DNA of 64,000 bases from a virus. The position numbers and the translations under genes were made by a program. The notes below the pieces were generated by a model, which was not told the DNA's origin, ran no database searches, and saw only the letters and a list, made by a program, of their open reading frames with translations. Below, one piece after another: positions 16,301 through 55,235 of the stretch (the stretch's first letter is position 1; the number at the start of each line of letters is the position of its first letter). The stretch lies in the UHGV virus genome UHGV-1351569; one strand, 5' to 3'.

Positions 16301-18028
16301 TTAGCCAATGTCAATCCTCGATCCATCAATTGTGTATTGACCAGATGAAATAGAACTCATAGATGCCATTTTTTCTGTCCAATCACCACCAACGTCCCAA
16401 TCAACTGTCCCAGCAACTTTCCAAGAAAGATTTCCATTTACTGTATTAGTCTGATTTCCTTCAACTAAAGTGGTAGCATCTCCTTTAACTGTAATGTCAG
16501 CATTACCTTCAACTACAATAGTAACATTACCTTTGACTAGGATAGTTCCATTACCTTCAACCGTCTTAGTTTCATCGCCACGCACAAATATTGTATTGCT
16601 TCCATCTATTTGGTGGAGACGATTATCCATGTTGTAATAAATTTCTGACCCACCGACGTTAGTCTTTTTATCACCAGCTACCAAAAAATTACCATCAGCA
16701 TTTGTTATATCATACAAATTATCAACAGTTTTTCTTGTTCTTCTTCCTGACGGTGATACTTCCTCATATGTTCCAGTCGGATGAACTAATCTGTATCGTT
16801 CTTGTCCCGGGGTATCGTCAAATTCCTGAATATGACCGCTTTCAGTTTCCATTGTGTGAACATACGGATATTCACCTTTATATGAAGAAACAGGTTCTTT
16901 GAATAAAATTCTTGAATCATTCGGAATAGGAGGATCAGCCGGGTCAGAAGACTTTGCTACAGTAGCAGCCATTGCAGACAAAGACCTAGCCGGTGTTTTC
17001 ACTTCAATACCGTATGATTCCAAATTCCCTGTAAGAATAATCATGGTAACACGAGATGCACGGCCTTTTGTTTGTTGATACCACAATGAATCACGACCAG
17101 CTTTATATGCTTTTTCCCAATCTCCGGCTAACATAGCTGTTAACATTGTGTTAAATTTAGCTACACCGCCAACACCCATCTGAAATGCCATATTTTCTAA
17201 TGCCATTTGACGAGAACGATTAACTGCTTTCCAAACTGGGCCAACTTTAGAATGTGATTTAATGTCACGTTGCATATCAGCCAAATCGCGTTCAAATAAA
17301 GTTACCGCTTCTTCCATTGTAATAGAACCTGGATTTCCGGTAATTTCACGACCAACTTGTTTTGATAAAACTTTATTAATTTGGGTCATATCACGAACTG
17401 GCTGCTTCATGATAAGATGACCAATGCCAATTGTCGGATATCCTTCAGTATCCCAATAAACTTTTAGTCTTAATCCTTCATCACGGCGAAGCATTTCAGC
17501 CATTGACATATTTGGATTATCATCAGTTGGAATTTCTGATAACGGTCTATCATCAGGATTTATCGCAGTGTCTAGATTACTATCTTGGATAATATTAGAA
17601 GACGAATCATATCCTACTTCTCCGCCTTGGTTTAATACGTTAGTATCATTTCCTAGACGTCTAGGATACTGTCCAGTTGGGTCAGAAAATCCTTCAAGTC
17701 TATTAGGCTTTTCGCGAACTATTCCACCATACGTGCCAAGGACAATTCCGTTAGTTTTCCATTTGTCTAAAAAATGACCATAAACTCTAGTTCCTTCTAC
17801 TGGCCCTGTAACAGAACCTCCAATTCCAGACATTGCTGCAGAAGTTATCGGTTGAATAACTGACATCCATGGCAATTTATCGGTTGGAATACCCATTACA
17901 TCGCCTTGTGCTCTCTGAGGCGGATGCAGACCAACCACACGAACACGAACACGACCTAATTTTAATGGGTCCATTCTATCTTCAACAACACCAACAAACC
18001 AATTAAGGTTATTACTTATCATTTCCAT
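16301..18028 (-). CDS. 5: baseplate hub subunit and tail lysozyme gp5
   Basis: 575 aa; internal lysozyme motif LRRDEGLRLKVYWDTEGYPTIGIGHL similar to gene e product; C-terminal VxGNxT beta-helix repeats. Confidence 0.9.
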   Translation of the reverse strand: MEMISNNLNWFVGVVEDRMDPLKLGRVRVRVVGLHPPQRAQGDVMGIPTDKLPWMSVIQPITSAAMSGIGGSVTGPVEGTRVYGHFLDKWKTNGIVLGTYGGIVREKPNRLEGFSDPTGQYPRRLGNDTNVLNQGGEVGYDSSSNIIQDSNLDTAINPDDRPLSEIPTDDNPNMSMAEMLRRDEGLRLKVYWDTEGYPTIGIGHLIMKQPVRDMTQINKVLSKQVGREITGNPGSITMEEAVTLFERDLADMQRDIKSHSKVGPVWKAVNRSRQMALENMAFQMGVGGVAKFNTMLTAMLAGDWEKAYKAGRDSLWYQQTKGRASRVTMIILTGNLESYGIEVKTPARSLSAMAATVAKSSDPADPPIPNDSRILFKEPVSSYKGEYPYVHTMETESGHIQEFDDTPGQERYRLVHPTGTYEEVSPSGRRTRKTVDNLYDITNADGNFLVAGDKKTNVGGSEIYYNMDNRLHQIDGSNTIFVRGDETKTVEGNGTILVKGNVTIVVEGNADITVKGDATTLVEGNQTNTVNGNLSWKVAGTVDWDVGGDWTEKMASMSSISSGQYTIDGSRIDIG

Positions 18029-23674: not shown

Positions 23675-24190
23675 ATGAATATTTGTTTAGGTACTACAAT
23701 TCCGCAAGGTTATGTGATTGATGTAACTACATGGGAAAATGATGGTGACAACTATAAAACCAAAACACTGTTTGGCGTAGAAGAGCATGAAATCTTACAA
23801 TTCCAATATCTTTTAAAGAAGTTTAAAAGCCGACATTCTAGTACTAAAATTGAGCACTATTGTGGTAATGCTTCGTTCAGTGAGCAATCGCTTTTTATCT
23901 ATGAATACTTGGTTGAAGGACTGTTCTCAGACCAGCTTTGTTCAGAATTCATTAAAAAGGTCTTTGATATAGAAGTTGACCTTGGTAATAAATCCGAAGA
24001 AGACGAAGAACGTGTATTTGACTTATTCTTTGCGAACGGTAATAAAGTGCTTGAAGGACTTATTAATATTTTAGGCAGTGCTTCTGAATATTATGATTAT
24101 GATTTTCTGCGTGTAGTTGAGAGTGTTAAATACTCTTATATAGAAAAAGAAATTGTTTTGCCGACCGTTAAAATGTTTAATTTGCTTTAA
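23675..24190 (+). CDS. hypothetical protein
   Basis: 171 aa from first ATG (ORF track begins at GTG 23666). Confidence 0.5.
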   Translation: MNICLGTTIPQGYVIDVTTWENDGDNYKTKTLFGVEEHEILQFQYLLKKFKSRHSSTKIEHYCGNASFSEQSLFIYEYLVEGLFSDQLCSEFIKKVFDIEVDLGNKSEEDEERVFDLFFANGNKVLEGLINILGSASEYYDYDFLRVVESVKYSYIEKEIVLPTVKMFNLL

Positions 24191-24276
24191 GAATTATTTG
24201 TTATTATTAACTCATACCGCACTGATTAATACCCTCTATCATCAAGGGTTCTTATTTGAGAGCCTTTGTTAATAAT

Positions 24277-24349
24277 TGGGAATTAGCCAAGTTGGTAAGG
24301 CACTGGATTTTGATTCCAGGATGCAAAGGTTCGAGTCCTTTATTCCCAG
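24277..24349 (+). tRNA. tRNA-Gln (anticodon UUG), CCA not encoded
   Basis: cloverleaf read by hand: acceptor TGGGAAT/ATTCCCA, anticodon stem CTGGA/TCCAG, loop TTTTGAT. Confidence 0.8.
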
Positions 24350-24350
24350 C

Positions 24351-24437
24351 GCGAGAATGGTCAAATTGGTAAAGGCACAGCACTTAAAATGCTGCGGAAT
24401 GATTTCCTTGTGGGTTCGAGTCCCACTTCTCGCACCA
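24351..24437 (+). tRNA. tRNA-Leu (anticodon UAA), type II long variable arm
   Basis: acceptor GCGAGAA/TTCTCGC, anticodon loop CTTAAAA, encoded CCA. Confidence 0.8.
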
Positions 24438-24442
24438 AATTT

Positions 24443-24516
<74 letters not shown>

Positions 24517-24526
24517 ATTTAATTTA

Positions 24527-24603
24527 CTCCGTGTAGCTCAGTTTGGTAGAGCACCTCACTTGTAATGAGGATGTCGGCGGTTCGATTCCGTCAATCAGCA
24601 CCA
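24527..24603 (+). tRNA. tRNA-like gene with Thr anticodon UGU but non-complementary acceptor stem (probable hybrid / pseudo-tRNA)
   Basis: D, anticodon and T arms fold normally; 5' acceptor strand CTCCGTG cannot pair with 3' strand AATCAGC (4 of 7 mismatches). Confidence 0.55.
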
Positions 24604-38655: not shown

Positions 38656-39033
38656 GTGAGTGAGTCGAAGAGAATCAATATGAAACGATTGGTATTAGAA
38701 GTTAGTCCACTTTTTGGTGAATTGGCTATAGAAAAAGTAAATAACATGTATCGTTTGACGCAAGAAGACGATATGCTGTATTTTACGCCTAGTGAAATCA
38801 TTCATTTAACCCAAATTGAATATCCTTATACTGATAAAATAGTAAGCATCAATGATGAGCACAAAATTCATTTTTATTCTTCATGCCCAGGATTTAATAT
38901 TAAAAGTGAGTCAATGTGTTTATCAGTTATCCATTGGGATAGTTTTATAGATAAGATTAAATATTTTTATTATTCTAATGAAAGAAAACATAGTTTAAAA
39001 TGGTTTAAAAAATTGCAATGCTATTATTACTAA
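38656..39033 (+). CDS. hypothetical protein
   Basis: 125 aa, GTG start 9 nt after AAGGAG. Confidence 0.45.
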   Translation: MSESKRINMKRLVLEVSPLFGELAIEKVNNMYRLTQEDDMLYFTPSEIIHLTQIEYPYTDKIVSINDEHKIHFYSSCPGFNIKSESMCLSVIHWDSFIDKIKYFYYSNERKHSLKWFKKLQCYYY

Positions 39034-39220
39034 CGCTTGCAATCAGAACGATGAAACTCTTTTAAATGTATCAAAATGTTATGAAGATGGAGATGTCTTA
39101 ACTATTCGTCAAATTGATGATTTTCGATCGCATATTGTCACATTTACCAAAGACGAAGCTATTGCGCTAAAGACTTATCTTGATTCTGTCATTCCAACTA
39201 TGATTTCAAAGTGAGGAAAT

Positions 39221-39744: not shown

Positions 39745-40206
39745 ATGATTATTAATGAAAACTCTTGGCACTATAAATTATTCAAATTGTTTAACGATGA
39801 ATGGCAACGACCTAAGACACTATGCGCATATTTTTGGTCTATTGCCATTCCTACATTTTTCGTTTCTATTTTTGGATGTGCTATACTCGTAGGGCTAACA
39901 ATTATTTGTGCAGAAAGCCTACAACGTTGGCTTATTTTTGGTAGTTTATGGACTTTGCTTCCATCAGCATTTATACTTGCGATTTTGGTTGTTTTACTTA
40001 TTATCGGTTCATTTGTTATTCCTGCACATTTGCGTGAAAAATATAAAGATTATAAATGGAAAAAGGATTATGCTTTACACGTAGAAAATATTGATAGGGC
40101 GTATAAAGGTTTACCTCCTATTCAACCCAAGAAATCGATTATCGTTGAATTTTTAAAAGCTCGTAAAGCTAAAGTATGTCCTGTTATTGAATATAAGGCT
40201 GAATGA
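39745..40206 (+). CDS. predicted membrane protein
   Basis: 153 aa with three hydrophobic helices. Confidence 0.5.
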   Translation: MIINENSWHYKLFKLFNDEWQRPKTLCAYFWSIAIPTFFVSIFGCAILVGLTIICAESLQRWLIFGSLWTLLPSAFILAILVVLLIIGSFVIPAHLREKYKDYKWKKDYALHVENIDRAYKGLPPIQPKKSIIVEFLKARKAKVCPVIEYKAE

Positions 40207-41216
40207 TGAAAACAGTAATGAAAAGCTATTTTGGTAGTCATCTTTATGGAACTTCTACCCCAGAATCTGATGTAGATTTTAAAGAAATCTTTGTTCCTCC
40301 TGCTCGCGATATTCTTATCGGAAATGTCAAAGAGCATATGAGTAAAAACACTAACAACACATCATCTAAAAACACTAAAGATGATATTGACCATGAACTA
40401 TACAGTCTTAAGTATTTCTTTAAATTAGCAGCAGATGGTGAAACCGTAGCATTGGATATGCTCCACACTCCACCTGAGCTAGTGGTTAAATCTGATTTAC
40501 CTGATGTATGGAAATTTATCCAAGACAATCGTTCACGGTTTTATACAACTAACATGAAATCCTATTTAGGATATGTCCGCAAGCAAGCTTCTAAATACGG
40601 TGTCAAGGGTTCTCGTTTGGCCGCATTACGTGATGTATTGAAAGTAGTTAATCAAATCCCTGAGCAATGGGTTGATTACCAAGAAGACGGCTCCATTAAG
40701 CAGCGTCGCACTAAAGTTGAAGATATTAAGCATCGTCTTCCAGAGAACGAATTCTGTGAATGGGTATTCCATAATCATGAGAAAACAGGTCCACAAACGT
40801 TCTACACTGTGTTGGGTCGTAAATATCAAACAACGCTTTCTCTTATTGAGCTTAAGCAGTCACTGAATAAATTAGATGCTGAATACGGCGAACGTGCTCG
40901 TAAGGCTGAAGCGAATGAGGGCATCGACTGGAAAGCTCTGAGTCATGCTTGTCGTGGTGGACTCCAACTATTGGAAATTTACAAAACTGGTGACTTAGTC
41001 TATCCACTTCAAGACGCTCCATTTATTCTCGACGTGAAGTTGGGTAAACATCCATTTAAAACTGTTCAAGAGTTTTTGGAAGATGTGGTCGATCAAGTAG
41101 AAGCAGCATCCATTGAAGCTTCTAAGAACGGTATGCAGCAAAAAGTAGACATGGGTTTCTGGGATGACTTCCTTGAGAGGGTTTATCTTGAAAACCACCG
41201 AAGTTATTATAAATGA
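40203..41216 (+). CDS. nucleotidyltransferase-fold protein (pol-beta superfamily motif)
   Basis: N-terminal FGSHLYGTSTPESDVDF fits the hG[GS]x(9-13)Dh[DE]h nucleotidyltransferase signature; a further acidic residue in ...ALDMLHT. Confidence 0.5.
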   Translation: MMKTVMKSYFGSHLYGTSTPESDVDFKEIFVPPARDILIGNVKEHMSKNTNNTSSKNTKDDIDHELYSLKYFFKLAADGETVALDMLHTPPELVVKSDLPDVWKFIQDNRSRFYTTNMKSYLGYVRKQASKYGVKGSRLAALRDVLKVVNQIPEQWVDYQEDGSIKQRRTKVEDIKHRLPENEFCEWVFHNHEKTGPQTFYTVLGRKYQTTLSLIELKQSLNKLDAEYGERARKAEANEGIDWKALSHACRGGLQLLEIYKTGDLVYPLQDAPFILDVKLGKHPFKTVQEFLEDVVDQVEAASIEASKNGMQQKVDMGFWDDFLERVYLENHRSYYK

Positions 41217-41217
41217 T

Positions 41218-41242
41218 AGGGAGCCTTCGGGCTCCCTTTTTT
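41218..41242 (+). terminator. rho-independent terminator
   Basis: AGGGAGCC-ttcg-GGCTCCCT followed by T6. Confidence 0.7.
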
Positions 41243-41266
41243 ATTTCAAAATTTTTTCACAAAACG

Positions 41267-41296
41267 GTTTACAAGCATAAAGCTTTATGGTACTAT
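41267..41296 (+). promoter_or_regulatory. early promoter with A/T-rich upstream element
   Basis: TTTTTTCACAAAACGGTTTACA ... GGTACTAT. Confidence 0.6.
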
Positions 41297-41330
41297 ACAA
41301 CTATCAACTGATACGGATTTGGAGAATAAA

Positions 41331-42300
41331 ATGAAAACTGTAACTATCAATAAGGGTATCTACTTCGGTAAAGAAATCTCTGGAACTTTTGAGCTCTTAG
41401 GCGAATGGTTCCCAGATAATGCTCCGGTAGATGCACAAGGAGATGGTAAAGTTTTTGTTGAAATTGACGGTAAACGTCGCGGTGTTTGGGTTTACAAATC
41501 AGATATTTCATATGATGGTGTAAAAGTTGAAGAAGTTAAAGAATCGTATGAAGATATGAAAACCCGCATTAATAAAAGATTTAATGTTATGGGAATGATG
41601 ACGAATGGTATTATTAATGGAAATATTCGTTCATTGATTATCTCTGGTGCAGCAGGTATTGGTAAAACGTATTCTTTAGATAAAGCTTTAAATAAAGCAA
41701 ATGATATTGGATACATTGAATATAAAAGCATTAATGGTAAAATCTCTGGTATTGGTCTTTATGAGCAGCTTTGGAATAATCGTGAAGAGAATTCTGTCCT
41801 TTTGATTGATGATGTGGATGTTTTCTCTGATATGGACATTCTTAATCTTCTAAAAGCTGCTCTGGACACTGGAGAGACCCGTAAAGTCTGCTGGAGCACG
41901 GCGTCTTCTTACTTAGAAGAAAAAGGCATTGAGCGTGAGTTTGAATTTAAAGGAACGATTGTTTTTATCACAAACGTTGACATTGACCGCGAATTAGACC
42001 GTGGTACTAAACTTGCCCCCACACTTACAAGCATTAGTGTCCCGCTCGGTTTATTTGGATTTAGGCGTTCACACTAATGAAGAAATTATGGTCAGGGTTG
42101 AAGATGTTATTCTTTCAACTGACATGATGCAAAAGCGCGGTCTTTCTGATGAAGAAACTTATAAAGCATTATCATGGATGAAAGTTAATGTTAATCGTTT
42201 ACGCAATGTTTCACTGCGTACTGCTCTTTATCTTGCTGACTTTATTATGACCGACAAAAACGGTTGGGAAGAAATTGCTGAGGTTACTCTTCTGAAATAA
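41331..42300 (+). pseudogene. AAA+ ATPase with reading frame split by a +1 shift near a C5 run (42016-42020)
   Basis: Walker A SGAAGIGKT, Walker B LLIDDVD, sensor-1 FITN in frame 1 (stop at 42075-42077); frame +1 ORF from 42001 continues to 42300; removing one C joins them into about 322 aa. Confidence 0.5.
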
Positions 42301-42389: not shown

Positions 42390-42704
42390 ATGGAGGTAAT
42401 GATGTTATACTCAAAGGCTCGTGAAATTTACGAAACTAAAATTAAAGAAGCAGTATTTCAGTTCGCAACAACGATGCGATGGACAAATGATTGGGAGTAT
42501 TCAAAAAATCATAAGAAGCCCATGGTGACAAGAAAGGCTCATATGTTAGTGTTAATAGACCGTGAGCAGATTAAAGCCCGAGAAGCCCTCCAGAATCATA
42601 AAAAGGCTGCCTTTGAATGGTTTATGGATAACACTGCTCCTGAGACTAAGAAAGCAGTGAGCGCCTGGTTCAGTGGAAAAAATTGTGAAAGAAGTTTCTT
42701 TTAG
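42390..42704 (+). CDS. hypothetical protein
   Basis: 104-aa ORF. Confidence 0.45.
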   Translation: MEVMMLYSKAREIYETKIKEAVFQFATTMRWTNDWEYSKNHKKPMVTRKAHMLVLIDREQIKAREALQNHKKAAFEWFMDNTAPETKKAVSAWFSGKNCERSFF

Positions 42705-47726: not shown

Positions 47727-48040
47727 AAAAGCGTTTATTAGAAGATATTGCAGCTTCAAGTAATTCCAGTCTAATTAAAATTATTATGGCTGGTGAAGAA
47801 GACGATCTGGAAATGCGTGGAAAGATTCATGGTTGTGACGATTTAGATTTTAAACCTCCAGCTTGGGATGCCATTATGGCTATGGTTGAACGTCGCGAAA
47901 GGGCTTCTAAAAGCGTTCCTAATTGTCCTGAATGCGGTACTGAACAGGTTCAATTAGTCCATTGGCAGACTAGTAATCTTCGTTATAAATGCCGTCATTG
48001 CAAACACCGATTTAACCGAGAAGAAAATGACCAAGCGTAA
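47723..48040 (+). CDS. small protein with C-terminal zinc-ribbon-like CxxC...CxxC
   Basis: NCPECG...CRHCKH. Confidence 0.45.
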
Positions 48041-48254
48041 AGAATATATGGAGATTGCTGAAAAGGCAGTACGTGAATTAGCAATAGCATATTATAATGA
48101 ACATGGTAAATTTCCTGATAGATACAGCGTGCTTAAATCTGCTTTAACTCGTTCATATAAAAATATGCTATCAGAAGTAAGTGATATTATTACAAACATA
48201 AAGAACAAACGGGCCAAAGTCTTGATTACGACGAGACTTTTAAACAAGTACTAG
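48027..48254 (+). CDS. hypothetical protein
   Basis: 75-aa ORF. Confidence 0.45.
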
Positions 48255-48269
48255 GAATTAAGGAATAAT

Positions 48270-54756: not shown

Positions 54757-55023
54757 GTGATCGTGCTGTATTTAGTTCAGTTGCTAAGGAAATTAAACTC
54801 CATGGGTAAAACGTATCGTCGTAAAGATTTAAAAGTACGTGATTATGACTATTTCGGAAAGCGTAAAGCTCCTGATGGTGTAAGTCATAAAGATATGGTT
54901 GAAAACATTTTTCGCTCTGATAAATGGCGTAGAATGAAAGGCATTGATTCAGAAGTTAAAGATGAGTTAAATCGTCAATTGCGTGGTGAAGTAAGAAAGT
55001 TGAAAAAAATCAGTTTACATTGA
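54757..55023 (+). CDS. hypothetical basic protein
   Basis: 88-aa ORF; likely start at internal ATG 54802; a 58-aa ORF (54633-54809) lies upstream. Confidence 0.4.
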   Translation: MIVLYLVQLLRKLNSMGKTYRRKDLKVRDYDYFGKRKAPDGVSHKDMVENIFRSDKWRRMKGIDSEVKDELNRQLRGEVRKLKKISLH

Positions 55024-55025
55024 CG

Positions 55026-55235
55026 ATGATTTTGATTACAATACTTCTCAACGAGTTGCTAAGCGTAAATCAAACGAGTGCTATCGTTACAGCTGAGGAA
55101 AATATGAATATCAAACGCATGCTTTTTAAACAAGGATTATACACTTTAAATATTGCTCCAAAAGGCGATACGACCAAGTGGTCAGTAAATGACTGGATTA
55201 AATTCATTGATGAAAACGGTAACTGGAAAATTTAA
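55026..55235 (+). CDS. hypothetical protein
   Basis: 69 aa from first ATG. Confidence 0.4.
   Translation: MILITILLNELLSVNQTSAIVTAEENMNIKRMLFKQGLYTLNIAPKGDTTKWSVNDWIKFIDENGNWKI

Follow-up and report, generated by a model that had tools for sequence, protein, structure and literature searches.

A one-base insertion in the AAA+ gene nrdC.10 as a probable loss-of-function lesion in a gut-borne T4-like phage clone

The DNA analysed here, a stretch of 64,000 nucleotides from virus genome UHGV-1351569 (the window), is part of a T4-like (Tequatrovirus) genome, in which the gene nrdC.10 is broken by a single additional cytosine. The lesion is a run of five cytosines (C5) at 42016..42020 on the plus strand, one C above the existing in-frame allele with four (C4), which reads GCC CCA CAC and encodes Ala229-Pro230-His231. 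The inserted base is present in the DNA, is confined to one strain, and deprives the encoded product of the conserved end of the protein. Two open reading frames (ORFs) are left, one at 41331-42077 and one in the +1 frame ending at 42300, and they are the two halves of one 322-aa gene. nrdC.10 belongs to the early accessory genes of T4-like phages, and we regard the insertion as very probably a genuine and recent frameshift that abolishes its function.

The window shares about 96% identity over 24 kb with many isolate genomes, and the gene order around nrdC.10 is conserved, with nrdC.11 upstream and nrdC.9 downstream. The name nrdC.10 is used as annotated in PP01, and a single 969-nt CDS occupies the place of the gene in SA20RB, ECP2301, PP01, F1, 236Ecol005PP and SP1. 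Both synteny anchors are intact and, like all the features of the locus described here, lie on the plus strand: nrdC.11 (40203..41216) encodes an RlaP-type nucleotidyltransferase (PF10127, E = 3.3e-11), while the nrdC.9 homologue (42390..42704) belongs to DUF7203. An intrinsic terminator, composed of the stem-loop AGGGAGCCTTCGGGCTCCCT and a following T run, lies 3' of nrdC.11 at 41218..41247, and the annotation of SA20RB places a terminator at the equivalent position. It is followed at 41268..41296 by a site resembling a T4 early promoter (TTTACA, 17 nt, TACTAT), from which nrdC.10 would be transcribed; at the equivalent position, the annotation of SA20RB likewise notes similarity to a T4 early promoter. 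The ATG of nrdC.10 at 41331 has a GGAG Shine-Dalgarno sequence 8 nt upstream. The surroundings of the gene are also mosaic. Between nrdC.11 and nrdC.10, F1 has a DUF4031 gene and a 49-aa ORF (24069-24478 of its record), both of which are missing at 41217-41330 of the window, and 236Ecol005PP has an additional 239-aa gene (17061-17780 of its record) overlapping the 3' end of nrdC.10.

The 5' part of nrdC.10 (41331..42077) consists of 248 codons and a TAA. It covers the N-terminal beta domain and the linker helix as well as the motifs Walker A, Walker B and sensor-1. Its final 18-19 codons (42021-42074) are out-of-frame nonsense, TLTSISVPLGLFGFRRSH, and the premature TAA at 42075..42077, which results from the frameshift, overlaps an ATG (TAATG). 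The 3' part of the gene, in the +1 frame, runs from His231 onward at 42021..42300 and encodes the S-R-S motif, strand beta5 and the helical lid. This frame is free of stops from 41998 to the codon at 42298-42300 that ends it, and a GTG lies at 42001. When the 322-aa protein of vB_EcoM_F1 is compared with the window by tBLASTn, residues 1-235 match 41331-42035 in one frame at 98.3% identity, and residues 228-322 match 42013-42297 in the adjacent frame at 98.9% identity. Because both halves match a single F1 protein in adjacent frames, the division of nrdC.10 over two frames is, at the level of sequence comparison, far beyond what chance would be expected to give. Removal of one C from the C5 run yields a 969-nt ORF of 322 aa. 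These frames, the stop, the position of the C5 run and the 322-aa fusion had all been described in a first-pass annotation of the window, and direct reading of the sequence agreed with it on each. At the protein level the two possible products differ across the junction, the full-length form containing the peptide LAPHLQALVSR and spanning KLAPHLQALVSR, and the truncated form reading LAPTLTSISVPLGLFGFR.

The repaired protein corresponds to the family phrog_1250, which is annotated as being of 'unknown function'; residues 1-322 align with positions 1-327 of the 327-position profile at E = 1.3e-166, and as encoded in the window this match is divided over the two frames. There are 1006 homologues at E <= 1e-5, typically 321-340 aa long, in several T4-like genera, including phages of Escherichia, Klebsiella, Serratia, Acinetobacter, Aeromonas and Vibrio. 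The proposal that nrdC.10 encodes an AAA+ ATPase, made earlier from its motifs, is supported by the predicted fold. Walker A (GAAGIGKT, 41646-41669, residues 106-113), Walker B (VLLIDDVD, 41796-41819, residues 156-163) and the sensor-1 strand (IVFITN, 41958-41975, residues 210-215) occur in canonical order on an alpha/beta core, with the model strands placed as expected. The motif residues G, K, DD and N are invariant in 40 of 40 aligned homologues, an alignment in which sequences share 53-80% identity with the first one. An 89%-identical homologue was modelled with AlphaFold2 from this alignment, with a mean pLDDT of 88.8. In the model, residues 1-61 form an N-terminal beta domain, which is followed by a long helix, by an alpha/beta core at 102-244 and by a helical lid at 250-321. 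Foldseek comparison of the model with the PDB returned 180 matches at E <= 0.001, and the top 50 were all AAA+ proteins, including ORC/Cdc6, RFC, RuvB, Hda, NtrC1/PspF, NSF and dynein, with no one clade favoured.

No Pfam AAA model reaches its gathering score (AAA_14 with 23.5 bits against a cut-off of 27, PF00004 with 16.5 against 21.2), and no useful match came from searching solved structures by sequence. An AAA motif in nrdC.10 was already recorded in 2006, together with sub-threshold Pfam AAA scores (PMC1524935). In GenBank, many records call nrdC.10 and most of its neighbours 'thioredoxin', a label that appears to have been carried over from the nearby nrdC; the protein has an AAA+ fold, not that of a thioredoxin. 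Compared with the clamp-loader, initiator and RuvB groups of AAA+ proteins, the fold and the motif order are alike and there are weak PHROG matches to clamp loaders, but TM-scores are only about 0.35-0.45, identity is 11-16%, and the N-terminal beta domain is unique to nrdC.10. The SRC box of clamp loaders carries an arginine finger. The S-R-S motif of nrdC.10, directly before beta5, resembles this box and is presumably a candidate arginine finger.

The break falls within the ATPase core. The shift point is at Ala229/Pro230, after sensor-1 and before the P-H..AL.S-R-S helix, beta5 and the lid. P230, H231, S237, R238, S239 and Y241-L244 (the YLDL strand) are invariant in the 40-sequence alignment, and all of them lie 3' of the shift. 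The S-R-S motif (42037-42048), beta5 (VYLDL, 42049-42063) and the lid segment RLRNVSLR (42196-42219) are encoded in the +1 frame; the lid and the conserved arginine between sensor-1 and beta5 are present in the repaired protein and its homologues, and both are out of frame in the window. The 248-aa product thus retains the N-terminal domain and the motifs Walker A, Walker B and sensor-1, and is without S-R-S, the last core strand and the entire helical lid. Since the break precedes the invariant S-R-S motif, the last core strand and the lid, the truncated product is almost certainly inactive as an ATPase. The earlier suggestion that the downstream ORF is the lid of the ATPase is right as far as the lid is concerned; this ORF also contains S-R-S and beta5, and the break lies inside the core instead of at the boundary between core and lid.

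This position bears directly on the possibility that the locus is a functional split gene, in which the 248-aa N-terminal part and a separately started C-terminal part of 70-99 aa would come together as an active ATPase. In favour of this, the downstream frame is undamaged and agrees fully with that of functional alleles, and gene callers do predict a downstream ORF. However, the callers pick four different starts (giving 70, 81, 87 and 99 aa), none of them with a Shine-Dalgarno sequence, and such a sequence is absent at each of the candidate starts GTG 42001, TTG 42013, GTG 42037, TTG 42055 and ATG 42088. The product of ATG 42088 would be without S-R-S and beta5. The cut lies inside the alpha/beta core, between sensor-1 and beta5, where there is no domain boundary, and no orthologue is split at this place. 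The intactness of the downstream frame is explained by the recent origin of the lesion. The overlapping TAATG at 42075-42079 was considered as a signal for translational coupling and rejected, as its ATG lies in the third frame and opens an ORF of only 16 codons, not the frame of the lid. We therefore judge a working split gene to be extremely improbable, and return to a disrupted gene as the preferred reading.

A disrupted gene requires that the extra C is real. An additional base in a homopolymer is the classic type of sequencing or assembly error, and a miscall could have added a C to a true C4 run; the C5 allele is found in no isolate genome, and the window holds three further 1-nt indels that break ORFs. 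However, an exact look-up of the 248-aa product led to 11 contigs with the same C5 run. They represent at least nine samples, with both MEGAHIT (k119, k127) and SPAdes-style NODE assemblies among them. Nine of these contigs were fetched and were 100% identical to the window along their whole length, up to 20,747 nt. They comprise a JGI contig (3300045988), ENA ERZ27229741 (a MEGAHIT contig with a k119 name, equally long), three NODE-named contigs in SPAdes style (ERZ2661042, ERZ2661055 and ERZ2661092), and four k127 MEGAHIT contigs from separate runs (SRR2191093, SRR2191451, SRR2191163 and SRR2228257) of PRJNA217052, the Fiji Community Microbiome Project. The JGI contig is the 168,202-nt metagenome contig Ga0495776_001669, with which the window is 100% identical at bases 95331-116077; by arithmetic, the window corresponds to bases 64001-128000 of it. 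A look-up of the 70-aa downstream ORF added ERZ2661035 and a fifth Fiji run, SRR2191108, which are 100% identical across the gene and carry C5.

These contigs, being all 100% identical, represent one clone seen repeatedly in assemblies and not independent lineages, and they come from three sample sets whose independence as projects is not established, as the ERZ2661xxx entries could be re-assemblies of related data. All the same, a random miscall would not turn up again and again in at least nine samples that were each sequenced and assembled on their own, and the sequencing-error reading is rejected on this ground. Additionally, 29 C4 relatives have been sequenced without the change, and the structural and replication genes of the window contain no frameshift despite holding about 42% of its homopolymer runs of at least 5 nt. 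The placement of lesions in accessory instead of essential genes is too weak an argument when taken alone, given that 42% of these runs lie in essential regions. Taken together, a sequencing or assembly error is very unlikely to account for the C5 run. The same clone was seen at 100% identity in at least six PRJNA217052 runs, several ERZ2661xxx assemblies and JGI 3300045988, and its recurrence reflects either a widely shared gut phage clone or carry-over between samples.

In the relatives, the gene is intact. More than 500 sequenced relatives have the 969-nt gene in frame, and none of them stops at the place where the ORF of the window ends; the site reads GCTCCA in most and GCCCCA (C4) in 29 records. 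With a 161-nt query across the site, the best 60 of 503 matching phage records were all exactly one base shorter than the window. A 31-mer of the C4 allele occurs in those 29 records, which include RB3, RB5-10, Sf24, IME340 and T4_ev240, whereas the C5 31-mer, centred on the run such that any 28-nt seed must include it, had no match in 50,697 phage records. The C5 pattern was also not found in IMG/VR or in the JGI metagenome collection scanned, and a scan of GTDB gave one match, in an archaeal metagenome-assembled genome, that was taken as chance. When compared with nrdC.10 of T4, a 36.7-kDa phrog_1250 member in the nrdC-mobD region, the gene of the window lies in the same place behind its own early-type promoter, and the repaired 322 aa are 98-100% identical to the proteins of other Tequatrovirus phages, with the same Walker A, Walker B, sensor-1, S-R-S and lid; the allele of the window differs by its one extra C, which leaves 248 aa only and occurs in no isolate genome.

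Some other records of nrdC.10 are short or disrupted in ways of their own. Cluster members of 247 aa and 252 aa, which could have been taken for orthologues ending at the same place, have an intact C-terminus and are either calls shortened at the N-terminus or fragments at contig ends, and EC121 and KPV15 annotate only the 247-aa form starting at Met76. Two scaffolds, found through the 70-aa downstream ORF as possible independent disruptions, contain N gaps and are artefacts. A real-looking lesion, which is a different 1-nt insertion at gene position 557 with an extra C in CGTAAAGTCCTG, is present on a 168.5-kb contig (JBRTCF010000011.1 of GCA_053218395.1), and phage BYEP02 has a C-terminal frameshift in nrdC.10 that gives 290 aa. 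Sporadic lesions of nrdC.10 are not rare.

We infer that one C was added to a C4 allele (GCC CCA); the simplest route is slippage during replication of the homopolymer, the mechanism described by Streisinger. The ribosomes starting at 41331 would then read Ala229-Pro230 followed by 18 wrong residues, and stop at 42075-42077. The insertion adds a base identical to those of the run, relatives carry the in-frame precursor, and the product loses the conserved segment P230-L244 and the lid. Once repaired, the 322-aa sequence is the same as that of three intact proteins (P0001, P0138 from Shigella phage ESh16, and P0146), and there is no added damage downstream, from which it follows that the lesion is recent. 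Like Streisinger-type frameshifts, for which the hotspots of T4 rII are the model, the change from C4 to C5 is a same-base addition with the C4 precursor present in relatives, and two other lesions of the strain extend A-runs. It differs from the rII hotspots in that it is a fixed natural allele in metagenomes and not a laboratory mutant, and that C4 is a short run and no known hotspot; slippage is accordingly offered here as the probable mechanism.

Conserved accessory genes of the strain carry three further 1-nt lesions. All F1 proteins were compared with the window, and the breaks found were then checked against two further relatives. In the mobD.1 homologue (38656-39211), an extra base in GGTTTAAAAAATT at about 39007-39014 (near 39012) places F1 residues 1-110 and 108-177 in adjacent frames. 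In the nrdC.1 homologue (48027-48265), a base is lost near 48191, turning TATTATATAC into TATTATTAC, with the last 15 or so residues changed and 75 aa encoded instead of 80. In a DUF5499 gene (54802-55093), the homologue of a T4 11.8-kDa protein, an A6 run has become A7 (55003-55009), which shortens the product from 97 to 73 aa. The three were retested with 121-nt queries, as 31-mers could be masked by the low-complexity filter of BLAST. Every record listed in these searches differs from the window by the indel in question; the records listed for mobD.1 are one base shorter, and for nrdC.1, 286 phage records differ from the window only by the gap at the lesion. The mobD.1 and nrdC.1 lesions both fall within the metagenome contigs matching the window at 100% identity. 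The A7 run of the DUF5499 gene is absent from the best-matching isolate genomes and, unlike the nrdC.10 lesion, is shared by diverged strains, being either a recurrent hotspot or a spreading allele; the 73-aa product was seen with flanks of 93-96% identity in Logan assemblies ERR15315964, SRR29747663, ERR14020261 and ERR1302796. Across the same region of about 30 kb, two relatives have one and zero such 1-nt lesions, against the three others in this strain, and the structural and replication genes in the window have none.

The tRNA cluster of the strain is also reduced. A chimeric tRNA-like element at 24527-24603 replaces the Pro, Ser and Thr tRNA genes of F1. Its 5' acceptor strand and D-arm come from tRNA-Pro(UGG), its anticodon arm and 3' end from tRNA-Thr(UGU), with the junction in the D-arm that the two share. 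Its acceptor strands are not complementary and ARAGORN makes no call. The strain keeps tRNAs for Gln, Leu, Gly, Met(cat) and Arg only. Given the several 1-nt lesions and the deletion in the tRNA cluster, the clone has shed several accessory functions. The lost Pro and Thr tRNAs match both codons of the nrdC.10 shift site (CCC ACA), which is probably a coincidence.

This match does bring in ribosomal frameshifting, which, whether programmed or leaky, would restore the wild-type 322-aa protein. In such a mechanism, tRNA-Pro(UGG) on CCC would re-pair with CCA, with CAC (His) as the next codon, and slipping by +1 at GCC CCC ACA would give back precisely the ancestral protein. Sites of the type CC[C/U]-N are prone to shift, up to about 1% at CCC-C in Escherichia coli, and for the UGG isoacceptor, pairing is weaker on CCC than on CCA (PMC4519876). 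The Pro, Ser and Thr tRNA genes have been replaced by a chimeric Pro/Thr tRNA that is probably dead, and the loss of the phage tRNA-Thr(UGU), the reader of ACA in the A-site, might enhance the slip. However, the C5 site is not conserved, being present in one clone only, while more than 500 orthologues are in frame. There is no GGAGG-like Shine-Dalgarno stimulator upstream of C5, the A-site codon ACA is a sense codon, neither a stop nor a known slow codon, and the downstream RNA structure is not significant against shuffled sequences (z = -0.77). The expected yield of slippage, at most about 1%, would be noise and not a programme. Compared with the +1 frameshift of the prfB type and the slippage of tRNA-Pro at CCC-N, the site shares a CCC followed by a base that allows re-pairing to CCA; it is without the in-frame A-site stop, known slow codon, Shine-Dalgarno stimulator, conservation and structure. 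A frameshift that restores the protein is therefore unlikely. Among the three explanations offered by the first-pass annotation, the evidence thus selects the genuine pseudogene; an error of sequencing or assembly is ruled out, since two kinds of assembler gave the same C5 on 11 contigs that stem from at least nine samples, and a programmed frameshift finds no support in an unconserved site with neither stimulator nor structure.

A narrower form of this idea concerns compensation within the strain. After the loss of tRNA-Pro(UGG), tRNA-Ser and tRNA-Thr(UGU), slower decoding of ACA could let the peptidyl-tRNA-Pro slip from CCC to CCA, and the raised +1 slippage at GCC-CCC-ACA would rebuild wild-type NrdC.10 and offset the lesion. 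We consider this highly improbable. Should it be true, it would be a natural case of frameshift suppression in a phage that depends on the tRNA repertoire. Returning to the preferred reading of a broken gene, the loss of function would not need to be complete, and the allele may be leaky, not null, through spontaneous +1 slipping of tRNA-Pro at CCC-A.

We take the locus to be a real and ordinary pseudogene. Both ORFs should be annotated as one frameshifted nrdC.10 pseudogene and not as two genes, and the extra C in the window is not to be 'corrected' as an error. nrdC.10 is probably dispensable for this strain; the literature searched contains no direct statement on the dispensability of nrdC.10 itself. 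T4 remains viable after deletion of the neighbouring blocks nrdC.1-6 and nrdC.11-mobD.3 (PMC9825161), and nrdC.5, a counter-defence gene directed against the Dsr1 defence system, is likewise dispensable (PMC9391042). A gut-borne T4-like clone, present in several Fijian samples, thus has accessory early genes inactivated by several 1-nt indels, as well as a deletion of tRNA genes. These lesions, together with the tRNA deletion, are in keeping with the idea that the accessory functions of the nrdC-mobD region are host-specific and dispensable.
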